A program made the translations under genes and the position numbers. A stretch of DNA of 12,149 nucleotides from Chthonomonadaceae bacterium (GTDB lineage Bacteria; Armatimonadota; Chthonomonadetes; Chthonomonadales; Chthonomonadaceae), in assembly GCA_043734985.1 (NCBI GenBank), contig JAYTEU010000052.1, positions 1 through 12,149 on the forward strand, given 5' to 3'. Positions 320-11,931 of this stretch are shown in pieces. Each line of letters starts with the position of its first letter. Positions within the stretch are counted from its first letter, which is position 1. The notes below the pieces were generated by a model, which was given only the letters and a program-made list of their open reading frames with translations, was not told the DNA's origin and did not search any database.

Positions 320-835
320 TTATTCCGCTTGACCGGCCCTGGCATCGTCGATGAGCATCTGCTGAAGGTCGAGCAGCTCCAAAACGTGCAGTCTGTCTTT
401 CGGACGGTCGGCGACACGTTTCATTGCAATGAGATCGTCGATTGAGGCCACACGGACATCCATGCCATAAATATCCATCGTTTCACCTCGGTTCCACAAT
501 CCCTCGAAGCTGTCAACGCCGTCGGGAACCGCAAGCAAGTCCATATCACCAACGTCAGTGGTCAGGGTGAGGTTGAGGACATTTCGGAAAGTCCGTTCGT
601 CCAAGATAAACGGGAGATCGGCAGGCACATTGCGGAGGCGTGCGTGACTCTTCCTTAATACTTCTGCGATCGCAGAAAGGTTTTCTTTACTGCGATCGTA
701 AGCCACGTCAATGTCACCCGTAATGTGGGTGGCGCCTCGCACAATCATGGCCAGGCCACCGATTACCACGAATCTAACATGGCCCTCAATCAGTCGACTT
801 ATTGCTGCGCGAAAGTCTGTATTCCCGACCTGCAC
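320..835 (-). CDS. Nucleotidyltransferase-fold protein (Pol-beta superfamily, minimal NTase), possibly a toxin/antitoxin or defence-module component.
   Basis: The ORF 320..880 has the classical hG[GS]-x(9-13)-DhDh NTase motif (VVIGGLAMIVRGATHITGDIDVAY) and a C-terminal AMKRVADRPKDRLHVLEL segment seen in small stand-alone NTases. The codon at 880 is TTG, not ATG. A GTG at 833-835 is preceded by GGGAG 7 nt upstream, so I place the start there. The precise start remains uncertain; TTG 880 is also possible. Confidence 0.65.
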   Translation of the reverse strand: MQVGNTDFRAAISRLIEGHVRFVVIGGLAMIVRGATHITGDIDVAYDRSKENLSAIAEVLRKSHARLRNVPADLPFILDERTFRNVLNLTLTTDVGDMDLLAVPDGVDSFEGLWNRGETMDIYGMDVRVASIDDLIAMKRVADRPKDRLHVLELLDLQQMLIDDARAGQAE

Positions 836-1031
836 GTTCAAACTCCCTAGATATTTGCAATGCCCGTTGGAGCCATTCAATTCGCTCTGTAGGTGTCCGC
901 CTCAGACTTGCGCGAAACATTGTCAGGTCGTAACCATTTGCGCCCTGGTCGAATTTGCCGGAGAGGGCGCGTTTAAGGAACTCCCGATGCTCCTCGGATA
1001 AATGTGCGTATTCGTCCTCTATTTCGTCCAT
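786..1031 (-). CDS. Small hypothetical protein (81 aa), the upstream partner of the NTase gene; its 3' end overlaps the NTase 5' end.
   Basis: ATG at 1029-1031 with a GGAGG SD at 1039-1043 (7-nt spacing). Translation is MDEIEDEYAHLSEEHREFLKRAL.... It has no recognisable domain and no HEPN Rx4-6H motif. It overlaps the NTase ORF by about 50 nt (about 95 nt if the NTase starts at 880). Confidence 0.5.
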   Translation of the reverse strand: MDEIEDEYAHLSEEHREFLKRALSGKFDQGANGYDLTMFRASLRRTPTERIEWLQRALQISREFERAGREYRLSRSNKSTD

Positions 1032-1209: not shown

Positions 1210-2925
1210 CTAACTCTTTCGCTTCTCCTCGCGAAATTGCGTATTCCGCCACTGGGCAAAGAGCGGCTTCAGCTTGTTGCGCTGGTATTTGCCGGTCGAT
1301 GTGACAGGAAAAGTGTCGCCGAATAGAACGACTTTGGGCGATTTGGCGAAAGGAAGTTCAGCGCGGCAAGCGGCGAGGACTTCAGCTTCCGAAATCTGCG
1401 ATTCGGGTTCGCGCTGTACGTAGGCTCCGATCTCCTCGCCGTAGATCGCGTTATCGAACCCAACCGCCATTGCGGCCCGAACGCCGGGAATCGCGGTCAG
1501 TACCTCATCGATATCGAATGGCGAGTAATTGACGCCGCCACGGATAATAAGCTCCTTGAGACGGCCGGTAATGAAATAGTAGTCCGCTCCATCCGTGCCT
1601 CTTTTGAGGAAGCCCTCATCGCCCGACCGAAACCAGCCGTGCGCAAAGGTGTCGCGATTCGCGTCCGGCCGCTTGAAGTAGTATTTCATCACGTTGGGAC
1701 CGCGCGCCACGATCTCGCCACGGACTCCTTCAGGCTGAGGATTTCCATCAGCGTCGTGAATGGCCATCTCATTTGCCGAAATCGGACAGCCGATGGAAGG
1801 GAATCCTCGATCGAACATCCAGTCGCGATAGGCCGCAGGGTCGAGGCCGATGGGCAAAAAAGTAGAATAGCAGGTCGTCTCGGAGAGTCCATATCCATGC
1901 ACGACTCGGAGGCCAAACGCCGAATCGAAACGGTGCGCCAATTCTGTGGAAAGCGGGCCCGCGCCGCAGATAAAGTGGCGGAAAGCGCTCAGGTCGAAAG
2001 CCGACAGGTCCTCCCCGCGTTCGCACAGAAACGCCAGCAGCGTCGGCACTACGCTGACCCACGTACACCGCTCAGCAGCCAGTGTCCGCCAGAATGTCTG
2101 AACGTGAAAACGGCGATTGAGAACGATGCTCCCTCCGGTATACAGCGGCGTCATTAGAGTGACCACTGTGCCGTTTACATGGTGGATCGGCAGGACGCAC
2201 ATAGCGCGGTCGTCGGCTGTGAACCGGTGCCATTCGGCGATGCCGTGCGCATCGGTCAGCAGGTTCGACTGATCGAGCACCACTCCCTTCGGCGCACCCG
2301 TCGTGCCGGAGGTGTAGACCAGCAGCGCCTCCGTCGAAGCCGGCATGTCGGCGTCCGGTTCGAGCAGGTCCGGCTGAGGCTCGTCCGAGGAGCCAGATCC
2401 GAGTGAATATTCCGGCGTCTCACCTTGTCGGCGAGTCACTCGTGTTAGGAGTTCAGGAAGAGCGACAGTGTCCAGTCGCGCTTCATGAGCTTCCGCGGCA
2501 AATACCGCTCGTGCTTCGGAGTTTTGGAGGATGAAGGCGATGCGGTCGTCGTCCTCGCCGGAATTTATCGGTACGACTGCAATCCCTGCCAGCCAGGCGG
2601 CGAAGTAAATCGCAACGGTGTAGGGATCGTTTCCGCGCAGTGTCGCAATCCGGTCGCCTGGCTTAAGGCCCATCTCATTGCGCATCTCGGCGGCCAGTCG
2701 GCGAACTGCGATGTAGAATTCGCGACAGGTGTACTCCGCCGCCCTTCCCGTGTCCTCATAGTAGGTCAGGAACGGTTTTTCGGGGTGTTCCGCCGAGCGA
2801 AAGGCCAGCAACGTTCCGATATTCGGCACGGTAAACTGCGGTTCCACAGAGTGCGACAACCGCCTCGCGTGCTCTATAAGTGCGGCCGTTTCCGGCAAAA
2901 TGCTCTCCGAATCGAAGGTCGTCAT
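1210..2925 (-). CDS. AMP-dependent synthetase/ligase (acyl-CoA synthetase / ANL adenylating enzyme family).
   Basis: ANL core motifs are present: YTSGTTGAPKGV (A3, P-loop), GYGLSETT (A5), FRSGDEGF (A7), GRLKELIIRGGVNYSP (A8) and PVTSTGKYQRNKL (A10 lysine). The tool start at 2943 is GTG; the ATG at 2923-2925 has GGAGG 8 nt upstream and is the preferred start. Protein is about 571 aa. Confidence 0.9.
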   Translation of the reverse strand: MTTFDSESILPETAALIEHARRLSHSVEPQFTVPNIGTLLAFRSAEHPEKPFLTYYEDTGRAAEYTCREFYIAVRRLAAEMRNEMGLKPGDRIATLRGNDPYTVAIYFAAWLAGIAVVPINSGEDDDRIAFILQNSEARAVFAAEAHEARLDTVALPELLTRVTRRQGETPEYSLGSGSSDEPQPDLLEPDADMPASTEALLVYTSGTTGAPKGVVLDQSNLLTDAHGIAEWHRFTADDRAMCVLPIHHVNGTVVTLMTPLYTGGSIVLNRRFHVQTFWRTLAAERCTWVSVVPTLLAFLCERGEDLSAFDLSAFRHFICGAGPLSTELAHRFDSAFGLRVVHGYGLSETTCYSTFLPIGLDPAAYRDWMFDRGFPSIGCPISANEMAIHDADGNPQPEGVRGEIVARGPNVMKYYFKRPDANRDTFAHGWFRSGDEGFLKRGTDGADYYFITGRLKELIIRGGVNYSPFDIDEVLTAIPGVRAAMAVGFDNAIYGEEIGAYVQREPESQISEAEVLAACRAELPFAKSPKVVLFGDTFPVTSTGKYQRNKLKPLFAQWRNTQFREEKRKS

Positions 2926-3084
2926 CGAATCATCCTCCGGCACGGTCTGTCAGGCGAAAGTTACTATACCGGCATCCCCCAGCATTGCGAGCAACGGTGA
3001 ATCGTCGATTTCCAACGGCAGCGTTACTCGCGCGCGGCGTCGGGACGACTCGTAGGTGGCAAAGGTCCACTCCGTCTCACACGA

Positions 3085-4509
3085 TCACAGAACGTACGGC
3101 GCACGGTAATCGCGGCTAAGCATCCGCGATGCCTCGTCATCATCCGCGATCGTCTCGGCAAGCGGATCCCATTTCAGCGAATCCCGGCGCAGCCGCATAG
3201 CGATGTTGCCGAGTTGAGTAATGGTGATCGAGCGATGCGCGACTTCGGCGGGAGCGATCGGTTCCTCGCGGGAAATCACGCAGTCGATGAAATTTCGGAA
3301 GTGATCGTCGCTCTTGTAAAGGTGGATTTCCTTCTCACCAATAGCGGAGTTAAATATGTCCGGCGAGCTTGCTTCGTGCTTGCCCCGATCCGCCCAGACC
3401 CAGCCGTCCTCGCCTTCCCATGTCACGCCCGGCCGCGGTTTCTGCCTGATTAGCGCCGGCTCGGTCGATCCTGGGGCGCTCCCCTCTTCATTGGCGACGG
3501 CTCGGTTGGTGTCGGACACGACCATAGTAACGCCGTTTGCGTATACGGCCTCAAAATAGTACGCGGTCGCCGTGTCCCAGAGTTCGTCGGGTGGAAACTC
3601 GCCCCGGGCATTCCGTATTTCAATCGGTCCGGTCAGATCGGTTCCCATGCCCCATTGCGCGCAGTCTGGATGGTGGCCGCCCCAATCCGTGACCTGCCCG
3701 CCTGAGTAGTCGAGTATCCATCGAAAGTTGACGTGACAGCGCGCGGGCGCATAGGGTTTGTAGGGAGCCGGGCCAAGCCACATATCGTAATCGAAGCCGT
3801 CCGGTACCGGTTCGGGCTTCTTTCGGTCTCCCGTCTTGCCAAGATCGGGCCGCCCGCCCGGCAGACCGCAGTAAACCGTCTTCAGCCTGCCGATACGCCC
3901 ATTTCGCACGAGTTCGCAGGCGCGCCGAAAGTGCGGGTCCGAGCGCTGCTGGCTGCCGGTCTGGAGTATGCGCCCGTGGTCCCGGACCGCGTTGGACATC
4001 GCGCGCCCTTCTGCCACCGAAAGCGAGAGCGGTTTCTGGCAATAAATGTCCTTCCCGGCACGGCACGCCTCAATGACCTGCAGAGCATGCCAGTGGTCGG
4101 GAGTAGCGATCTCGACGGCATCGATATCCGCTCTGTCCAGCAGCTCGCGATAGTCCGAATAGGCGGCGCAGGCTGAATGGGTTCGCCTGCTCATCCCCGT
4201 GGCATAGGCTTCGTCCACCGTCCGACGCGCCGGCTCTCGACCTGCAACCGCGCCATTCCAGTATCCGGCGCTTTCGCGGTTAGCGTCGCACACCGCGACA
4301 ACCTGCACGCGAGGGTCTTTGAGGAAACTGCGCATATCACCGGTGCCCTGGTTGCCCGTACCGATAAAGCCCATCGTAATTCGGCTGCCGGGCGGAACCG
4401 CGCCATTTAGCCCCAGCGCCGTCGCGGGCACTATTTCCGGAAAAGCGCCGATTTTAGGTGATGAAGGCTGCGCTTGCGCACTTTGCAGTATGTTGGCATC
4501 CGAAGTCAA
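3085..4509 (-). CDS. Gfo/Idh/MocA-family NAD(P)-dependent oxidoreductase.
   Basis: N-terminal Rossmann motif MGFIGTGNQGTGDMRSFLKDPRVQVVAVCD, followed by the ...EIATPDHWHA..., CQKPLSL and C-terminal alpha/beta region typical of the family. Start is ambiguous. The tool start at 4515 is TTG. I prefer TTG 4509, which has GAGAGGA 7 nt upstream. An ATG at 4374 immediately before the Rossmann motif has no SD. There is no obvious Tat or Sec signal in the N-terminal extension. Confidence 0.8.
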   Translation of the reverse strand: MTSDANILQSAQAQPSSPKIGAFPEIVPATALGLNGAVPPGSRITMGFIGTGNQGTGDMRSFLKDPRVQVVAVCDANRESAGYWNGAVAGREPARRTVDEAYATGMSRRTHSACAAYSDYRELLDRADIDAVEIATPDHWHALQVIEACRAGKDIYCQKPLSLSVAEGRAMSNAVRDHGRILQTGSQQRSDPHFRRACELVRNGRIGRLKTVYCGLPGGRPDLGKTGDRKKPEPVPDGFDYDMWLGPAPYKPYAPARCHVNFRWILDYSGGQVTDWGGHHPDCAQWGMGTDLTGPIEIRNARGEFPPDELWDTATAYYFEAVYANGVTMVVSDTNRAVANEEGSAPGSTEPALIRQKPRPGVTWEGEDGWVWADRGKHEASSPDIFNSAIGEKEIHLYKSDDHFRNFIDCVISREEPIAPAEVAHRSITITQLGNIAMRLRRDSLKWDPLAETIADDDEASRMLSRDYRAPYVL

Positions 4510-4666
4510 TTGCAATTCCTCTCACGCGATATTCGGCATCAAATTACTCGCTCGAGTTCTACAGAGACAGCCGCAACTCCTCCGCCATTAATACGCAACT
4601 TTGGGCCATTCGGGTGACTGCGAGCGCACATTTTCGGGATTTGTCCGTCAGGAGGTAGCTGAGGAC

Positions 4667-4694
4667 TATATACCGAATCCCGTACTGGCGTCAA
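4667..4694 (-). promoter_or_regulatory. Candidate sigma70-type promoter (minus strand) for the oxidoreductase gene.
   Basis: Minus-strand TTGACG (forward 4689-4694), 16-nt spacer, TATATA (forward 4667-4672). Predicted TSS near 4660 gives a leader of about 150 nt to the TTG at 4509. Confidence 0.3.
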
Positions 4695-4777
4695 AGCCTG
4701 CTCACCATCAAACCAGGTACGGGCACTTAAATACTGAGAACGGAATCACCCTGTACCCGAAACATCACTATACGTGA

Positions 4778-4820
4778 GACACGGCCATGTGGTTGATTCC
4801 ATCAACCACATGGCCGTGTC
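4778..4820 (-). terminator. Very stable hairpin (perfect 20-bp stem, 3-nt loop) 27 nt downstream of the flotillin stop. Probably a transcription terminator or 3' stabiliser for the nfeD-floT operon; no U-tract follows.
   Basis: gacacggccatgtggttgat-tcc-atcaaccacatggccgtgtc is a perfect inverted repeat. It lies 3' of the minus-strand flotillin stop codon (4850-4852). The sequence after the stem on either strand is not T-rich. Confidence 0.45.
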
Positions 4821-4849
4821 ACGGGAAACTCTTCTCCCGCGCCAATACC

Positions 4850-6919
4850 TTACTTGGCTTGTACCGGCTGCTTCTCCTTGACTTCCACCACGATCGCCTG
4901 GAGTGGCGGCGCGATCGCGGGCGCCGCCAGCGCCTCCTGAAGCGCGGCGATGAAGGCGGGATTCTCGGCGAGCGCGCGTGCCAACTGGTCGGTCATCTCG
5001 GGTGTGACAGGCTTGCCCGAGTCGGCTCCGGTCACGCGGGAGAGAGCGGGCTGGATCAGCGAGCCCAATTGCGAAAGGAGACTGCCCACCGCATCGGATG
5101 AGGCGGGCTTTACGAACCCGTTCGCGGAGGTGGAACCGTTACCTGAGTGTCCGTTGCCGTTGCCGCTGGCGGTACTGCCACTCGCCGGACCGTTGACAAA
5201 CCCCTCGATCATCGAGCGCACGCCGAATCCTTTGGCCATGTTGTCCAGCATGGTCGTCGCAGTTTCGGGGGTCCCATAGAGCGTCATATGCCCGTTCGAG
5301 AGGAAACTAGCTAGCGATCGCGCAAACTCTATCTGTACATCGCGGCCCGCCTGAATGGTGAGACGCTGTAATTCGAGCTGAATTCCGGCCTCGGCGAACT
5401 CCTGCCGGTTCTCTAGCTGTTGGCGCTCGACCGCGACCTTCGCCTGCTCGACGTTAACCTGCTCGCGCGCTACGTCGACCGCGACCATCTGCTGCGCCTT
5501 CTCACCGCGCGCGGCCATCTCTTTCGCCTGGGCGTCGGCCTCCGCCAGCGAGCGTTTGGCTTCGGACTGTTTCACCGCGGACTCCCGCTCGGCTTCCGCC
5601 AGTTTTACGCGAGTATAGGCATCCACGTCCGCCGTAGTCTGTTGGCGCAGCTTGTCCTGCTCTATCTGCTGCCGGGCGGCTATCAGCTTCTTATTTGCCT
5701 CGCGATCCGCCTCGGCCAACTGGGTCACCGTTGTAACCTGCTGCCCGGCCTTCTCCCGGTCCGCCTGCGCAAGGAACGCGCCCTCCTCGGCCTTGGCCCG
5801 GGCGGACTCCTGTTCGGCGACGGCGATCTGCTTTAGGCGCTCCGCAACCGCGACGCTTTTATCGCGTTCGACGCCGGCCATTTGGACCTGCTGCTCCTTC
5901 GCGATCTGCGCGGATTGGACTGCCTGCTCCTGCATGGCGCGTGCGACCTCGATCGACTGCTGGCGTGCAATCTCCTGTGTCTGCGTCTGTTTATCCTTTT
6001 CGATCTTGGCAAGCTCGATCTGGCGCTGCTGCGTGATCAAGGCCTCCTGCGACTCCCGCTCTTTATCCGCGCGGACCTTGGCGATCTCGGTCGCCTGCGA
6101 GGCCTCGGCCTCCGCCTGCTGCCGCTCCAGCTCCAGTATCTGCTGGCGGGTTTCAACGTCCTTTAGCTTGCGAGCGCGTTCGGCGGACCGGTCCAGGTTG
6201 TTCCGCTCGACCGCCGCGGCGGCCGTGATCTCCGTGATCTTTTTCTTACCCTGGGCATCGAACACATTATTGTCGCTAAGCTCGGCCGGATCGGTCTGAT
6301 CGAGTTCGGATATCGTCACGGACTCCAGCAGCAATCCGTTGGCTTCAAGATCCGACTTGACGTGCTCCTTGACCTTCTCGGCGAATTCGTCACGCTTGGT
6401 GTGGATTTCGAAGAGGTCCATTTGAGAAGCGATCGCGCGCAGCGCCGAAACGAGTTTCTCGCTAACGAGCGCCTCGACGGCCTCCGCGTTGACGCTGCTC
6501 TCTCCCAGGCTGCGAGCCGCATTGAGAATGTGCTCCTCGTCCGCCTGGACACGAATATAAAATTGGGCGAGCACGTTGGCACGCAGGTTGTCTCGAGTGA
6601 TCAGCGCATTCTGGCCGCGCGGGTTTACACCCAGCTTCATCGTGCGAAGGTTGATCTCCAGCATCCTATGAAAGACGGGCACCACCATCGCGCCCCCATC
6701 GAGCACGACCTTATTGCCGCCACGCCCCGTGCGCACAAAGGCCATGTCCGCGGCAGTCCGCCTGTAATAGGACATACATGTCATAAGACCACCTGCAATT
6801 GCCAGCGCAACTCCGCCGGCGCCCATTCCGACCAGCGCGCCAAGCGGCAGGCGGAAGAAACCGCCCACGGCCGCGACGATAATCATCGCAATTCCCAATA
6901 ATGCAATTATGAACCCCAT
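4850..6919 (-). CDS. floT: Flotillin-family protein (SPFH/band-7 domain protein, FloT/YqiK-like).
   Basis: An N-terminal hydrophobic membrane anchor (IIALLGIAMIIVAAVGGFF...), then an SPFH domain (…VVPVFHRMLEINLRTMKLGVNPRGQNALITRDNLRANVLAQFYIRV…). A long Glu/Ala/Gln/Arg-rich coiled coil (flotillin EA repeats) follows, then a Gly/Ser/Ala-rich C-terminal tail. The tool start at 6985 is TTG. The ATG at 6917-6919 has AAGGAG 8 nt upstream and is preferred (689 aa). It sits immediately downstream of the nfeD-like gene, the conserved nfeD-flotillin arrangement. Confidence 0.9.
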   Translation of the reverse strand: MGFIIALLGIAMIIVAAVGGFFRLPLGALVGMGAGGVALAIAGGLMTCMSYYRRTAADMAFVRTGRGGNKVVLDGGAMVVPVFHRMLEINLRTMKLGVNPRGQNALITRDNLRANVLAQFYIRVQADEEHILNAARSLGESSVNAEAVEALVSEKLVSALRAIASQMDLFEIHTKRDEFAEKVKEHVKSDLEANGLLLESVTISELDQTDPAELSDNNVFDAQGKKKITEITAAAAVERNNLDRSAERARKLKDVETRQQILELERQQAEAEASQATEIAKVRADKERESQEALITQQRQIELAKIEKDKQTQTQEIARQQSIEVARAMQEQAVQSAQIAKEQQVQMAGVERDKSVAVAERLKQIAVAEQESARAKAEEGAFLAQADREKAGQQVTTVTQLAEADREANKKLIAARQQIEQDKLRQQTTADVDAYTRVKLAEAERESAVKQSEAKRSLAEADAQAKEMAARGEKAQQMVAVDVAREQVNVEQAKVAVERQQLENRQEFAEAGIQLELQRLTIQAGRDVQIEFARSLASFLSNGHMTLYGTPETATTMLDNMAKGFGVRSMIEGFVNGPASGSTASGNGNGHSGNGSTSANGFVKPASSDAVGSLLSQLGSLIQPALSRVTGADSGKPVTPEMTDQLARALAENPAFIAALQEALAAPAIAPPLQAIVVEVKEKQPVQAK

Positions 6920-7030
6920 TTCACTCGCTCCTTTGGAAAAGCTACCAGGGTCCTTTCGCGCGCCGTTACACTCGCGAAAAGTCAATCGATCTCACATCTA
7001 CCGTAACTGACCGGGGCATCGCCCGGCTCA

Positions 7031-7810
7031 TCACTCCACAACTTCCTCCACAAGCAGATTGCCCCGAGTATCACTGTCGACCACGATGGCACGACGGCCC
7101 CGCTCGATCGGCGGGTGCCCCGGCGACACGCGGCAACTCTCATCGTGAAGGGATCCATAATCGTCATAGATCATTATTCGCCCGCTCGACTCGCTTACTA
7201 CATAAGCTACATTGCCTTTCAATCCGAAAAGGCCGTTCCGCGACACGACTGACGTCTCCTCCGTGGGCATCAGTCTCGAGATTAGCTCGGATGCAAGCCT
7301 AGCGCCCACAACTCCGCACCCGGCGGCAATGGCCATCACCGGCAGAACCTGGATCAGCGTGGGCGAATGGTTATCTCGCAGAAGCTGCTGCGCCGCGATA
7401 CAGCCGCTCAATCCCCACACCAGGAAAAACGCTTGAAGTACCATCGGAAGGGGAGCGCGGCCGACACCGAAGATAGCGAGCATCGTCTGCGCCTGGGCGT
7501 CGGCCGCCTTGCCTGCCGCGCGATGGCTCGATCCCGCCTTTTGGTTATCTGCCGCGGCGTGATGGCCGGCCGCATGAGCCGGCGCATTTCCCGCGGCATG
7601 GCCAGCTGCATGCATTGGCGAATGCGCGGCCGCGTGGCCGCCCCCGATGTGGCCGTGCCCTCCAGATGCGGAGATACCGCCGTGCATGCTATGGACGCCG
7701 CTGTGATGACTGAATCGAAACGTCGAAAGTAGCAGCAAAAGCGCGGCAACTCCAAAGGGAACCAGGAAAATTAGATAGTGCCAATGCAAAAGCAACGAAG
7801 GATTTAACAA
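7031..7810 (-). CDS. nfeD: NfeD-like (YuaF/YqiJ-type) membrane protein with a C-terminal OB-fold. It carries an unusual His/Ala/Gly-rich insertion after the first transmembrane helix.
   Basis: TM1 is LIFLVPFGVAALLLLLSTF, followed by the His-rich segment. Two further hydrophobic helices follow. The C-terminal GLKGNVAYVVSESSGRIMIYDDYGSLHDESCRVSPGHPPIERGRRAIVVDSDTRGNLLVEEVV resembles the NfeD beta-barrel/OB domain. Start is TTG at 7808-7810 with a GGAGAGGAG SD 6 nt upstream; there is no in-frame ATG nearby. It lies upstream of flotillin on the same strand, the canonical pairing. Confidence 0.75.
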   Translation of the reverse strand: MLNPSLLLHWHYLIFLVPFGVAALLLLLSTFRFSHHSGVHSMHGGISASGGHGHIGGGHAAAHSPMHAAGHAAGNAPAHAAGHHAAADNQKAGSSHRAAGKAADAQAQTMLAIFGVGRAPLPMVLQAFFLVWGLSGCIAAQQLLRDNHSPTLIQVLPVMAIAAGCGVVGARLASELISRLMPTEETSVVSRNGLFGLKGNVAYVVSESSGRIMIYDDYGSLHDESCRVSPGHPPIERGRRAIVVDSDTRGNLLVEEVVE

Positions 7811-7959
7811 AGAACGCTCCTCTCCGCTTCACGCTTACGTGGCATGCGATCACCGCCATCCTGCATGATTCAATTCACCGTCCTCATAGATTACTACTCT
7901 TATTCCATCAGTCATGGATTAGATATTTCTTGCATATTACATCGCAATTATGCCCTTCA

Positions 7960-7973
7960 TTGCAATATTGCAA
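7960..7973. promoter_or_regulatory. Perfect 14-bp palindrome TTGCAATATTGCAA, a candidate operator in the divergent control region.
   Basis: It is exactly self-complementary. It sits at about +13 to +26 relative to the putative nfeD promoter TSS. Related half-sites (TTGCATATT at 7930-7938; TTTGCAAAATT at 8290-8300) occur nearby. The surrounding 150 bp is noticeably AT-richer than the rest of the window. Confidence 0.35.
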
Positions 7974-7992
7974 TCAATCGCTTGGGACGTAG

Positions 7993-8021
7993 ATTGTAAC
8001 GCGCATTGCTACAACCGGCAA
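7993..8021 (-). promoter_or_regulatory. Candidate sigma70-type promoter (minus strand) for the nfeD-floT operon.
   Basis: Minus-strand TTGCCG (forward 8016-8021), 17-nt spacer, TACAAT (forward 7993-7998). Predicted TSS near 7986, about 176 nt upstream of the nfeD TTG. Confidence 0.3.
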
Positions 8022-8132
8022 TTCCTTGTCTCAGCACCCCATTGAAACAGGAATTCGGATTGATTGTCAACGCCTGACAGGACCATCCTCACGGACGGAT
8101 ACTAGTAACGCGCCCACGATCGGAACGATTGA

Positions 8133-8161
8133 TTGACCCCGGCAGGCCGGTAGTGTATAAT
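8133..8161 (+). promoter_or_regulatory. Near-consensus sigma70 promoter (TTGACC-N17-TATAAT) driving the 1203-aa gene.
   Basis: TTGACC at 8133-8138, exact 17-nt spacer, TATAAT at 8156-8161 with TG immediately 5'. Predicted TSS near 8168 gives a leader of about 150 nt. An AGGAGAG SD at 8306-8312 lies 7 nt before the ATG at 8320. Confidence 0.5.
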
Positions 8162-8319
8162 AGGAAGGAACCTGTGTCAGGATTTTAGTGGGCGAAGATG
8201 CCCGAACCAGGCTGCACCCTCGAACCGTAGACGTCAGGCCACGTTTGCTGGGGCATGGCGACCGGATTTCGCGATGAGGTTTGACCCAGTTTGCAAAATT
8301 TAATCAGGAGAGTTAACGC

Positions 8320-11300
8320 ATGAGTTTTGACGAACTCCCGCCGGACTCGGAGTCGCCTTCACGGGCTGAACGACCTTCCAAGTCCGAGCAGGAAGCGTCT
8401 GCACAGGATGCGCCGCCCGCTGGACCAACGCGCCGACGCCGCGCGACCAAGACGGGGTCTGCCGCGGCATCCGATCGCCCCGCGGAACCGAAACTGCCAC
8501 GCACGCGTTTCAAGAGTATAAAGTCCGATGACGTCAAGCCTGCCCCTCCGGCAGCGGAGCCTGAGCCGTCGGCGACGCCGCCAAAGAAGCGAAGAGGCAG
8601 CAAGAGCATGCCTTCAGAGGCTGCTCCACCTCCACCTGTCTCCCAGGAAGCCGAGGCTCAGCCGGAGCCAATTCCGCCGGCGCGACGTTCCCGACGCGCA
8701 AAATCCCCAGACACGAAACCGGTTCCGGACGCAGAACCGACTGCAGCAGAATCGATAGCGCCCCAACCGGAGCCTGCCGCTCCGCGCAAGCGCGCTCAGC
8801 GGACGCGCACGTCAATACGAACTGCAACGACCGGGGTGGAAACCACTCCCGACTCGCAGCAAGTCACAACGCCTGAAAACCCAATTCCAACATCGAAAGC
8901 AGGCTCATCGACAGCCTCGCCGGCAGTACTGGATTTGCCTGGTGGAGAAGCGGAATCCAACCCGGTCATAAGCTCGAAACCGCGCTCCCGTTCGCGAGCG
9001 AAGCGTTCCAGCGCGCCGGCCGAAGAGGTCGCTGCGCCCGATTCAGCCGCTTTAGAGGTCTCCACCGAACCTCAAGCTGATGCTATCGCTCCGACGGATA
9101 GCCCTGTATCACGAGCATCCCGCAGCCGCCGGGGGCGTGGACGCGGCAAACGTGAAGGAACACGAGCGGACAAACCCGAGACAGACGTCGTCACGGAACC
9201 CGAGATAGCCCTTCCGACGGCGCCATTGATCCCTCAGCCGCGTGTTATCGATCGTACGGTCGGATCGCATCTGGTCGTCCGTGGCGGCGTCCCCCAGCTC
9301 ACCATAGATAACGTAGCCTTTCCGCCTGTTCTCTTCTTCGGCAACGTACAGGAGTCCGGCGACAAGCAGCGCGTACTGTCTGAAGTGCGTCGAGCAGCGA
9401 GAGCCGGCGTGCATCTCCATTCGACGCTCGTTGAACTGCCCTGCCCACTTTCCGAAGCCACGCACGCACTTGACGAGATCGATCGTGCCATGCGGGCGAT
9501 CATGGAAGCGGACCCGCTCGGCTACGTGATGCCAAGGATCGTCTTCGTACCCGCTCGCGGCTGGAAACGTGAATATCCCACGGACATGGCCACATATGTC
9601 GATGGACCCTCCAGCGATCCGTCGCTCACAAGCGAGCGATTCTGGCGCGAGGCCGAGCACGCGATTGCGATCCTGGTTGCGCATCTCCAGGAATACGAGT
9701 GGAGCAATAGGATCTTCGGGTACCACCTTGAGCGTGGCGAATGGTTCCAACCCGCGGACCAGGGTTACGACCGCAGCATGGCGAATCGCGAGGCGTTCCG
9801 GGATTGGCTCAAAGAGAAGTATAAAGGCAGCCTAGTTGCGCTTCGTGCCGCATGGTACGACGGCAACGTTCAGTTCCACACGGCGGAGATTCCACCGGTC
9901 GTAGCCAAACCAAACCCACAGCGTGCATTTTTCGAAACGCGACGAGAGCGCAGCTCGATTGACTTCAATGAATTCACGTCGGAAAGCACTGCTGACCGCC
10001 TTGTGGCGCTCGCGGGAGCCGTTAAACGCGCAGCCGACGATCGAGCGCTCGTTTCCGTCTGTTACGGATACACGTTTGAATTTGGGCACGGGTACAGTGG
10101 ACACCTGGCGCTGAGTCGCCTGTTGGATTCACCCGATGTCGATCTCATCTGCGGTCCGCCTTCTTATCGCGACCGAAAGCCCGGTGGCGCCGCTTCCCTG
10201 CCGGCGCCGGTGGGTTCCATTCACCTCCATGGCAAGATGTGGCTGTCCGAAGACGACACAAAAACCTTTCTGGCTCCCGTGCAACAGGATCCGGAAGACT
10301 TCAACCCTAGACTGACTGACCGCTTACAGACGGAACAGGCCTACGCGCGCAGCATGGGCCGAGCGTTCTCCACAGACACCGGAATCGGTTTTATGGATCT
10401 TTGGGGCGAAGGTTGGCTCGACGATGACGGCTTGTGGGACCGAATCGCCTCGTTTACGGAGCAGTACCGATCGGTAATGGGCGCTGGAAGTCAACGGCGG
10501 CCCGCAGACGTTATTGTCCTGGTGGATGAGCAGAGTCTTCTGCATGTTCAGCGGGGAGAAGCGTTCTTTAGGAAGATCACCGGTGGAGTTCGCGAGCTGC
10601 TTCAGCGATCGGGGGTAGACTACAAAGTCTACTTACAGGATGACGTGGTCAATCCGGATTTCCCGGTGGACGCAAAGCTCTATCTCTTCGTGAATCCGTT
10701 TCGGCTGTCCGTGGACCAGCGGTCCGCTATCGCGGAAAAGCTTCAGAGCGGGGGTAGGACACTGGCGTGGATGTACGCACCCGGCTCGTGCGAAGCAAGG
10801 CCGCAGATCGGTGGCGCCATGGAAGAGAGTGCGAGCGGGGCCCTTGGGCTGACCCTTCGCCAACAGGAGTGGAACTCGGAGATCGGGTCTCGCGTCATCG
10901 AACAGAGGCATCCGGTTACTGAGGGGCTTACGGCGCGAGAGATCGGCGTTCGAGAGCGGTTGAATCCTTCGTTCTACGTGGAAGATCCGACTGCAACGGT
11001 AATTGCCGAGTATCTTGGCTCAGGACTGCCGTCGATCGCTGTCAAAAAGTGTGGAAACTGGCAGACCGTTTTCGTGGGTGAGCCGGCTCTAACTTGGGAA
11101 CTGTTCCGAGGCATCTGCAAATTCGCGGGCGTACATTTATGGACCGGGGGCGAGGACGTAGCCTACATCGGGAACAACTGGATAACGGTTCACGCCAATC
11201 GGGATGGGCACCGGGCCGTACGGGTTCCCGAATCGTCGGCAATTTACGATCTCACGGAAGGGCGGCTGGTGGCCGAGGATCTACGGGAACATCGATTCTT

Positions 11301-11931
11301 CCTGAAGGCGGGCGCCACGCGAACGCTTTGTATTGGGTCGGTCAGAATGTTTATGGATTTGGGCCTGCCCAATCTCAATGTTGCACCGCCACCCATTCAA
11401 AAGCAATCTCCGGCGAAGCCGCCGGAGTCTCAGCCTCAGCCCCAGGTCGCGCCCCCGCCCGCCCGGCCGGAACCTATCGCCGCTATGAGTTCGGATATGG
11501 AAACGCTTCAGGCCGTGCTGAGCCTGGATTTGAGCCAGATCGAAGGTCTAAGTCTGGACGAGTTTGAAGAAGAAGACGACAGCGGCGATGTGGTCACAAC
11601 CCTTGGCGACCCGGCTGAGGCGGAGGCGCGCCTGGCGGCGCTCCTGCCCGACGCGGAGCTTCTAACAGCGGGCAGACGGAGGCGAAGGCGGGGTGGCCGC
11701 GGTCGCGGCAGGCGTCGCCCTGACGAGATGGACGACGCAGTCACCGCCGATGAAGGCAAGGCAGGCGACCCAATTGTTGCTGCGGTCCTTACGGGGAACG
11801 TAAATGCCGAACCCACGGACATTCGTGCCGCGGACATTCGCCCGATCACCACACCGCCCGAAACCGCGCCTGACATTTCACGAGGCACATGGCCGGACCG
11901 AGAGGCAGACTCGTCGGACGAACCCCAATGA
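8320..11931 (+). CDS. Large multidomain protein with a glycoside-hydrolase family 42-like core, flanked by long low-complexity disordered termini. The core has a TIM-barrel-like region and a class-I GATase-like 'beta-galactosidase trimerisation' domain. Function unknown, possibly non-catalytic.
   Basis: ATG start with a good SD. Residues 1-300 are Pro/Ala/Ser/Glu/Arg/Lys-rich with no hydrophobic segments and no signal peptide. The core (~300-1030) has GH42-reminiscent motifs: ...IFGYHLERGEWF..., REAFRDWLKEKYKGSLVALRAAWYDGNVQF (compare the GH42 ...AFRxWLKxRYGxLxALNxAW), and HGKMWLSEDDTKTF (compare the GH42 nucleophile strand GKPFLLMEST). The segment ADVIVLVDEQ...GVDYKVYLQDDVVNPDFPVDAKLYLFVNPFRLSVDQRSAIAEKLQSGGRTLAWMYAPG fits the GH42 domain-B/GATase-like pattern. 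The C-terminal ~170 aa are acidic and Pro-rich with RRRRRRGGRGRGRRR. The family assignment is from memory of motifs, not from a search. Confidence 0.8.
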   Translation: MSFDELPPDSESPSRAERPSKSEQEASAQDAPPAGPTRRRRATKTGSAAASDRPAEPKLPRTRFKSIKSDDVKPAPPAAEPEPSATPPKKRRGSKSMPSEAAPPPPVSQEAEAQPEPIPPARRSRRAKSPDTKPVPDAEPTAAESIAPQPEPAAPRKRAQRTRTSIRTATTGVETTPDSQQVTTPENPIPTSKAGSSTASPAVLDLPGGEAESNPVISSKPRSRSRAKRSSAPAEEVAAPDSAALEVSTEPQADAIAPTDSPVSRASRSRRGRGRGKREGTRADKPETDVVTEPEIALPTAPLIPQPRVIDRTVGSHLVVRGGVPQLTIDNVAFPPVLFFGNVQESGDKQRVLSEVRRAARAGVHLHSTLVELPCPLSEATHALDEIDRAMRAIMEADPLGYVMPRIVFVPARGWKREYPTDMATYVDGPSSDPSLTSERFWREAEHAIAILVAHLQEYEWSNRIFGYHLERGEWFQPADQGYDRSMANREAFRDWLKEKYKGSLVALRAAWYDGNVQFHTAEIPPVVAKPNPQRAFFETRRERSSIDFNEFTSESTADRLVALAGAVKRAADDRALVSVCYGYTFEFGHGYSGHLALSRLLDSPDVDLICGPPSYRDRKPGGAASLPAPVGSIHLHGKMWLSEDDTKTFLAPVQQDPEDFNPRLTDRLQTEQAYARSMGRAFSTDTGIGFMDLWGEGWLDDDGLWDRIASFTEQYRSVMGAGSQRRPADVIVLVDEQSLLHVQRGEAFFRKITGGVRELLQRSGVDYKVYLQDDVVNPDFPVDAKLYLFVNPFRLSVDQRSAIAEKLQSGGRTLAWMYAPGSCEARPQIGGAMEESASGALGLTLRQQEWNSEIGSRVIEQRHPVTEGLTAREIGVRERLNPSFYVEDPTATVIAEYLGSGLPSIAVKKCGNWQTVFVGEPALTWELFRGICKFAGVHLWTGGEDVAYIGNNWITVHANRDGHRAVRVPESSAIYDLTEGRLVAEDLREHRFFLKAGATRTLCIGSVRMFMDLGLPNLNVAPPPIQKQSPAKPPESQPQPQVAPPPARPEPIAAMSSDMETLQAVLSLDLSQIEGLSLDEFEEEDDSGDVVTTLGDPAEAEARLAALLPDAELLTAGRRRRRRGGRGRGRRRPDEMDDAVTADEGKAGDPIVAAVLTGNVNAEPTDIRAADIRPITTPPETAPDISRGTWPDREADSSDEPQ

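Follow-up and report, generated by a model that had tools for sequence, protein, structure and literature searches.

The locus

This analysis concerns a gene for a small membrane protein of the NfeD kind, and in particular a histidine-rich loop within that protein, found in a stretch of 12,149 nucleotides from a Chthonomonadaceae bacterium (contig JAYTEU010000052.1, assembly GCA_043734985.1; the whole stretch is called the window below). The NfeD-like gene is followed directly, on its own strand, by a gene for a flotillin-like protein. An initial annotation, made from the DNA letters, had singled out the loop as a special insertion that might bind divalent metals and so connect the flotillin scaffold with metal handling. 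We find that the His-rich stretch is real, but that it is not special to this protein. As judged from the sequences compared, the loop is a family-wide, hypervariable module of residues that can serve as cation ligands, and the window carries the His/Gly/Ala flavour of its Armatimonadota clade. The features of the gene pair are as follows.

4850-6985, minus strand: flotillin-like SPFH/Band_7 gene, 711-amino-acid (aa) open reading frame (ORF); Band_7 match with E 4.7e-20
7031-7810, minus strand: gene for the YqiJ-type NfeD-like membrane protein, 259 aa, TTG start; from the ORF list
7817-7825, minus strand: Shine-Dalgarno-like sequence GGAGAGGAG, spaced 6 nt from the TTG start; read from the sequence
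7715-7783, minus strand: first transmembrane helix (TM1), aa 10-32; hydropathy (10-31) and AlphaFold (AF2) helix 10-32 with a predicted local distance difference test score (pLDDT) >90
7511-7714, minus strand: His/Ala/Gly-rich loop, predicted to be disordered, aa 33-100, with its core at aa 35-96 (7523-7708)
7562-7612, minus strand: weak 12-nt periodic segment within the loop, encoding HAAG-like tetrapeptides, aa 67-83; Tandem Repeats Finder (TRF), period 12, 4.3 copies, 73% matches
7472-7510, minus strand: short helix ahead of the conserved motif, aa 101-113; AF2 secondary structure
7445-7468, minus strand: conserved G-x-G-R-A-P-L-P motif, aa 115-122, with NIGRLP as its counterpart in E. coli YqiJ (hhalign)
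7382-7450, minus strand: TM2, about aa 121-143; hydropathy (120-141) and AF2 helix
7295-7357, minus strand: TM3, aa 152-172, its helix running on to aa 180; hydropathy (150-172) and AF2 helix 152-180
7043-7225, minus strand: C-terminal five-stranded NfeD-type OB-fold, aa 196-256; AF2 strands 198-256 and Foldseek

The two genes are separated by 45 nt. The pairing with a flotillin, which the initial annotation had proposed, holds well beyond this locus, since the order of NfeD-like gene and then flotillin gene is found in 28 of the 29 species-level genomes retrieved by the core motif (nearly all of them Armatimonadota, from the Chthonomonadaceae, Chthonomonadales and Capsulimonadaceae), and also in the Chthonomonadaceae metagenome-assembled genome L001. 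The arrangement corresponds to the NfeD2-SPFH2 operon type of Hinderhofer et al. 2009 (PMC2636767). The flotillin-like protein also gives a FloT-like match, which is weak and far under the cutoff. Its sequence includes a long stretch of coiled coil, rich in Glu/Ala/Gln, and a tail rich in Gly/Ser/Asn/Ala. The listed ORF starts at a TTG codon, and a hydrophobic N-terminus (MGFIIALLG) begins at an internal ATG at about position 6919, which may be the true start of the flotillin.

Identity and architecture of the NfeD-like protein

We are highly confident that the window protein is a YqiJ-type (NfeD2-class) homologue of NfeD, with three transmembrane (TM) helices and a C-terminal OB-fold. Four lines of evidence agree with the NfeD-like identity that had been assigned at first, namely a YqiJ_N signal, an alignment to E. 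coli YqiJ, a match to an NfeD-type OB fold and the presence of the SPFH gene downstream. In the window protein itself, the Pfam signal for YqiJ_N (PF21001) amounts to 18.7 bits, under the cutoff of 23, and NfeD (PF01957) is unmatched, such that the Pfam gathering threshold is reached for neither family; a search of NCBIfam gave no family signal. Among 38 close homologues, YqiJ_N was matched by 33 at E<=0.1 (best 9.2e-6) and NfeD by 5 (best 0.008). A 38-sequence profile aligned by hhalign to E. coli YqiJ with a probability of 89.9% (E 1.7e-6, 142 columns), and this alignment spans the G-R-x-P motif, TM2, TM3 and the OB domain.

The AF2 model (mean pLDDT 76.8) shows the three TM helices and, at aa 198-256, a beta domain of five strands. 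Together with the hydropathy profile it confirms that the loop lies between the first and the second TM helix, as originally described. The segment of aa 33-100 is modelled without secondary structure, with a pLDDT mostly below 50 over aa 40-101, and the loop between TM1 and TM2 is predicted to be intrinsically disordered. The regions on either side are well conserved: aa 1-32, i.e., the N-terminus and TM1, share 65% mean identity with the homologues, and in the motif beyond the loop G115 and P120 are invariant and A119 is nearly so.

A Foldseek search gave as its top match in the PDB the entry 3cp0, with a target-normalised TM-score of 0.77, a root-mean-square deviation of 2.7 A over 68 columns, a probability of 1.0 and an E of 1.1e-3. 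What was solved there is the soluble part of a 'membrane protein implicated in regulation of membrane protease activity' of the NfeD type. Sub-threshold profile matches in the OB region pointed to YuaF (2k14, E 0.13) and to a stomatin-operon partner (3wwv, E 0.24). By analogy with studied NfeD proteins, the OB-fold domain is presumed to be the flotillin-binding module.

Composition of the loop and its coding DNA

The core of the loop (aa 35-96, positions 7523-7708 on the minus strand) holds 14 His, 16 Ala and 13 Gly among its 62 residues, so that its description as a His/Ala/Gly-rich low-complexity stretch was correct. The peptide quoted in the initial annotation matches aa 34-88 exactly and has 13 His in 55 aa. 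However, the figure of about 18 His given there for the loop is an overcount: the entire interval between TM1 and TM2 contains 14, and the full 259-aa protein 19. Given that the remainder of the protein has 2.5% His, the probability of finding at least 14 His in 62 residues is about 4e-10, and the enrichment therefore lies beyond chance. The remaining five proteins of the window contain 1.7% His, and the low-complexity regions elsewhere in the window (the two terminal parts of the 1203-aa protein, and the tail of the flotillin) contain 0-1 His each.

At the DNA level, the loop had been described as an imperfect repeat of units containing GCATG or GCGTG. These units are explained by His codons (8 CAT, 6 CAC) standing beside Ala and Gly codons and read in reverse complement, but as a repeat they are weak. 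The segment at 7562-7612 is the single array that TRF found in the loop DNA, and the other repeat families of the loop measure 12-15 nt, with the exception of a two-copy pair of 27 nt (70% identity).

It had further been suggested that this DNA could vary in length between strains. Within the cluster of >90% identity to which the window protein belongs, four sequences show no such variation; their loops are equally long and differ by substitutions only. One of the four, P0040, differs by 16 substitutions, 10 of them in the loop, a segment that accounts for 29% of the protein. The loop thus changes rapidly through substitutions, and no indel was seen at the level of strains. Between species, among the 38 homologues, loop length does differ. 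In a distant cluster of >90% identity with HD-type loops (P0110, P0190 and P0191, >96% identical), one member is short of exactly one HHDV tetrapeptide in the loop, and hence gain or loss of units by slippage does occur within the family.

These observations bear on the reading that the stretch is an artefact of a wrong reading frame, or else a contingency locus that is switched on and off by slippage. What speaks for it is the weak periodicity of the DNA and the presence of two shadow ORFs through the GC-rich stretch. However, in the 38 homologues the loop is flanked in a single frame by the conserved TM1 and the conserved C-terminal core, and lengths differ by whole codons throughout; a wrong frame is rejected for this reason, and the frame used in the initial annotation is correct. 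Moreover, the period of the repeat is a multiple of three, and a hypervariable tandem-repeat locus was rejected in view of the low match rate and copy number of the array and the equal length of the four near-identical sequences. We give almost no credence to either version of this explanation. The shadow ORFs, each longer than 110 aa, cover the coding region of the His loop at 7367-7732 (plus strand) and 7408-7755 (minus strand). They are open only because this region is GC-rich (69% GC in the loop DNA versus 56% in the remainder of the gene) and of low complexity, and gene callers could be misled by them.

The loop across the family

A low-complexity loop directly follows TM1 in all 38 close homologues, which share 33-62% identity with the window protein, and its length ranges from 43 to 111 aa (median 74). 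In 37 of them it is rich in His, the exception being P0034, whose loop is rich in Asp, Gly and Glu. On average, His makes up 19.7% of the loop residues (sd 4.2%) versus 2.6% of the rest of the protein (n=38). At the same time, the homologues are only 26% identical to the window protein within the loop, as compared to 52-65% in other regions. Since a His content of about 20% is kept at this low identity, it is the composition that is conserved rather than the sequence. His is most frequent where the loop leaves the membrane, with the consensus R-L-G-H-H-x-G-x-H-G-G-H-G-H.

For a wider view, a profile of the C-terminal core, with the loop excluded, was searched against 1.84 billion representative proteins and matched 1314 clusters at E<=1e-3, of which 582 remained at E<=1e-10. 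Loop classes were scored on 121 representatives (at 50% identity) that have a recognisable TM1 and loop and stand among the best 150 of the 1314. The loops at this site were of the following kinds.

His-type, 36 of 121: the class of the window, with Lys/Arg (K/R) present (median 5)
His plus acid, 52 of 121: typically with HDxDHDxD-like repeats; in P0102, 26 His and 46 Asp/Glu fall within 116 aa
Acid-type, 30 of 121: rich in Asp/Glu
Other, 3 of 121: basic, composed of Arg/Lys/Gly

A loop rich in His, in Asp/Glu or in both is thus found at the same site in 118 of the 121 distant representatives; the loops measure 14-124 aa, and the median fraction of His, Asp and Glu taken together is 0.35. With a His-rich loop of similar length in nearly every close homologue and a comparable one in almost all distant ones, the notion of an insertion special to the window protein does not hold. 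The initial annotation had also entertained the thought that homologues might carry the segment universally as part of a known metal-binding family. The first half of this turned out to be the case, while the second did not, in that no such family was matched in Pfam or NCBIfam.

In two genomes, paralogues of the protein are encoded in tandem. In L007, the ORFs 1731-2714 and 2718-3617 are followed by a single flotillin gene at 3731-5803, and in L033 the gene at 1163-1921 overlaps, stop to start, with the gene at 1918-2592, which encodes P0034; here, the contig ends just beyond. In both cases the gene with the His-type loop comes first and is followed, within one operon, by one with an Asp/Gly-rich (acid-type) loop, whereas the window has the His-type only. 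That both types have been retained suggests that the His and the acid chemistries are not interchangeable. The two kinds of loop may cooperate, either as a mixed set of ligands or through electrostatic pairing.

One explanation for all this would be that the loop is an entropic bristle, a flexible spacer with a passive role, of which only length and solubility matter, and that its His richness stems from slippage of codon repeats and from drift. The low identity of the loop and its wide range of lengths across the family are in keeping with such a role, as are the weak tetrapeptide periodicity of the DNA, the one-unit indel between near-identical proteins, which is slippage at work, and the three representatives whose loops are basic and poor in ligands. 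However, drift sits poorly with a His content that stays steady while the loop sequence diverges, with the H/D/E-rich loops of nearly all representatives, and with the retention of His-type and acid-type paralogues side by side. The other disordered regions of the window are almost free of His, which suggests that there is selection on the composition of the loop. We therefore regard a mere spacer as rather unlikely.

Topology

The distribution of positive charges allows a prediction of the side of the membrane on which the loop lies, which had been proposed as a check. In the 38 homologues, the median number of Lys and Arg is 0 before TM1, 6 in loop 1, 0 in the loop between TM2 and TM3, and 2 just past TM3, and the window protein, too, has no K/R ahead of TM1. 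In every loop class the N-terminus is short (about 11 aa) and devoid of K/R, the segment between TM2 and TM3 has few of these residues, and K/R follow TM3, while K/R inside the loop itself are confined to the His-type and the 'other' classes. From this pattern, it is predicted that loop 1 and the C-terminus lie inside, and the N-terminus and loop 2 outside. In S. aureus NfeD, the OB domain is cytoplasmic and binds the coiled coil of the flotillin FloA (PMC11222466). By the positive-inside rule and by analogy with this published location, the His loop is probably cytoplasmic and close to the membrane.

The inverse arrangement, with a periplasmic loop that captures or senses extracytoplasmic metals, is very improbable in our view. 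Taken alone, the acid-type loops of many relatives, which lack any K/R, would suit a translocated segment. However, the charge pattern around the helices is the same in every class, and in the clade of the window the loop itself carries a median of 6 K/R. Furthermore, a periplasmic loop would place the OB domain in the periplasm, which contradicts the published cytoplasmic site and the binding to flotillin (PMC11222466).

A possible ion-binding tether at the flotillin-NfeD assembly

What, then, might the loop do? We propose that it is an expanded TM1-TM2 linker which acts as a cation- (or proton-) binding tether at the flotillin-NfeD assembly, a proposal made from sequence comparisons whose chances of being right we judge to be about evenly balanced. 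According to this model, the NfeD-type OB-fold would dock onto the flotillin encoded directly downstream, as in the NfeD proteins studied so far. The linker would be a disordered, fast-evolving, low-complexity module on the cytoplasmic side and close to the membrane. Many such loops, arrayed around the assembly, would reversibly bind divalent metals (or protons), and ion binding would make the assembly, or its handling of client proteins, responsive to the ionic state of the cytoplasm. The number of loops per assembly would be high if NfeD and flotillin occur at about 1:1, as is reported for QmcA-YbbJ (Tan et al. 2024, as cited in PMC13086221 and PMC12478178).

That the loop binds cations is plausible in view of the richness in His and/or Asp/Glu of almost every relative. 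An array of cation ligands is further suggested by the preservation of composition without sequence, by the exchange of His, His plus Asp/Glu, and Asp/Glu chemistries at one and the same site, and by the regular spacing of the histidines: in His-type loops, pairs of His at a distance of i+4 are overrepresented (z 7.8) and directly adjacent pairs (HH) underrepresented (z -6) when compared with shuffles that ignore kinship among the sequences. There is also a precedent for a link with metals in Shewanella, where a knock-out of the yqiK homologue showed altered free iron and sensitivity to H2O2, and where the authors speculated about a metallochaperone role for its DUF1449 partner (PMC1468410). 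A further precedent is given by the cytoplasmic loops of the ZIP, IRT1 and ZnuB transporters, which are likewise rich in His.

Several points weigh against this proposal. The shuffles just mentioned, by their disregard of kinship, may be a lenient control, and the roughly 12 alignment columns with His in >58% of the homologues are a number that is maybe inflated by the alignment of low-complexity sequence. No known metal-binding family covers the loop, either in Pfam and NCBIfam for the window protein or in Pfam for the 38 homologues. Neither the window nor the homologous locus of L001 contains genes for metal homeostasis, and an Rfam search of positions 7700-8400 gave no match at E<=1, hence no metal riboswitch upstream. 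The three basic Arg/Lys/Gly loops with few ligand residues among the 121 representatives indicate that the loop can exist without cation-ligand chemistry. Lastly, the cytoplasmic placement is a matter of prediction and of analogy with other NfeD proteins.

A related explanation dispenses with metals. The loop could be a pH-responsive polyelectrolyte, in which the 14 His (pKa about 6-6.5) charge up on mild acidification of the cytoplasm and thereby tune the flotillin-NfeD assembly, since the gain in charge would alter the extension of the loop or its attraction to anionic lipids or acidic partners. The His-type loops, which contain K/R and few Asp/Glu and are thus neutral to basic, would suit this role, the disorder of the loop in the AF2 model is consistent with it, and the acid-type paralogue next to the His-type one in two genomes fits with electrostatic pairing. 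However, most of the wider family uses Asp/Glu at the same site, and these residues do not titrate near neutral pH. In addition, regular spacings such as HxxxH and HDxD are more typical of ligand arrays. We consider this explanation distinctly unlikely.

The ion-binding tether can also be taken further. YqiJ-type NfeD might be an unrecognised ion-sensing subunit of flotillin assemblies, in which multiple copies of the hypervariable loop at the cytoplasmic rim bind transition metals or protons and couple the assembly of the cage, or the handling of clients, to the state of the cytoplasm with regard to metals, redox or pH; a mixed ligand array would then be formed by the His-type and Asp-type paralogues where they occur in tandem. 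The phenotypes in iron and oxidative stress that have been reported for yqiK-type mutants would thereby be explained. This extended version is speculative, and we think it improbable as a whole.

Other features of the window

Apart from the NfeD-like gene, the window encodes an AMP-dependent ligase, a GFO/IDH/MocA oxidoreductase, the flotillin, a 1203-aa protein and a nucleotidyltransferase. In L001, the additional genes are an S-adenosylmethionine (SAM) synthetase and an AAA_21/RloB pair. Upstream of the NfeD-like gene lies the following region.

7811-8319, no strand assigned: intergenic region of 509 bp up to the divergent gene for the 1203-aa protein; promoter-like sites only (consensus scan)

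The scan for promoters and terminators yielded consensus matches only. A near-consensus match of the sigma-70 type (TTGACC, 17 nt, TATAAT; 11 of 12 positions) is found at 8133-8161 on the plus strand, toward the gene for the 1203-aa protein, and matches toward the NfeD-like gene reach 9 of 12 positions. The 1203-aa protein (8320-11931, plus strand), which is divergent from the NfeD-like gene, has Pro/Ala/Ser/Arg-rich low-complexity ends and only a marginal GH42-like match (E 2e-4). Several Chthonomonadaceae loci have kept a homologue of it as a neighbour, e.g., L001 with a 1162-aa gene. At the other end of the window, a DUF6036/AbiEii-like nucleotidyltransferase gene (320-880, minus strand) adjoins an overlapping ORF of 81 aa just upstream (786-1031, minus strand), and this pair could be toxin-antitoxin-like.

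Comparison with known systems

The closest known counterpart is YqiJ of E. coli (DUF1449, YqiJ_N; NfeD2 class, PMC2636767), the partner of the flotillin YqiK. It has the same order of TM1, loop, GRxP motif, TM2, TM3 and OB-fold, its flotillin gene lies immediately downstream, as in the window, and over the aligned core the window protein shares 17% identity with it. The loop of E. coli YqiJ carries ligands as well, its 30 aa (aa 33-62) including 5 His and 3 Asp. However, this mix of His and Asp differs from the His/Ala/Gly-rich loop of the window with its K/R, and the window loop is about three times as long (roughly 78 aa versus roughly 25 aa to the aligned position). The initial annotation had taken a brief loop to be the norm for such proteins; as compared to E. 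coli YqiJ the window loop is indeed longer, but this length is not unique to the window protein.

More distantly, YuaF/NfeD2 of B. subtilis and NfeD of S. aureus, the partners of FloT and FloA, are membrane-anchored proteins with a cytoplasmic OB-fold whose gene lies upstream of the flotillin gene, as here (PMC2636767, PMC11222466). The window protein shares with them the NfeD-type fold match (3cp0) and the weak profile match to YuaF (2k14). In YuaF, TM1 is followed by a short acidic turn only, and the loop of the window protein is much longer. In the literature searched, no paper combined 'NfeD' with 'histidine-rich', no His-rich module was described for YuaF or S. aureus NfeD, and DUF1449 was mentioned only in the Shewanella study (PMC1468410).

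Loops of comparable character occur in metal transporters. Those of ZIP/IRT1, ZnuB and ZnT lie between TM helices on the cytoplasmic side and are disordered and His-rich, as is predicted for the loop of the window; they are reported to bind metal and to regulate their proteins, and those of ZIP, IRT1 and ZnuB to act as metal sensors. However, their hosts are transporters, whereas the host of the window loop is a scaffold partner: no metal-transporter core was found in the window protein or the 38 homologues, in which YqiJ_N and NfeD are the sole Pfam signals. Cytoplasmic His-rich regulatory loops of metal transporters are also known from the CDF family and from RcnA. A similar composition of His with Ala, Gly or Asp and a short, periodic His spacing are found in Hpn, HypB, SlyD, UreE and Plasmodium HRP2 (with its AHHAAD repeats). 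These are soluble proteins of nickel or haem pathways, whereas the module of the window is tethered to the membrane within an NfeD protein and has no such gene context. Flotillin partners of the YqiJ/NfeD2 type are known, and so are cytoplasmic His-rich loops, but the latter in transporters.

Significance

Within its own clade, the loop of the window protein is ordinary. Its interest lies in the fact that it represents an undescribed, family-wide feature that gives the biology of NfeD and flotillin a testable handle, and this for proteins whose molecular role, in the case of NfeD as well as of bacterial flotillins, is still poorly defined. If the proposed function is wrong, the loop would be one more disordered linker under compositional constraint. 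If it is right, flotillin microdomains would be linked to metal or pH homeostasis, and the iron and peroxide phenotypes of the Shewanella mutant in the yqiK homologue (PMC1468410) would find part of their explanation.

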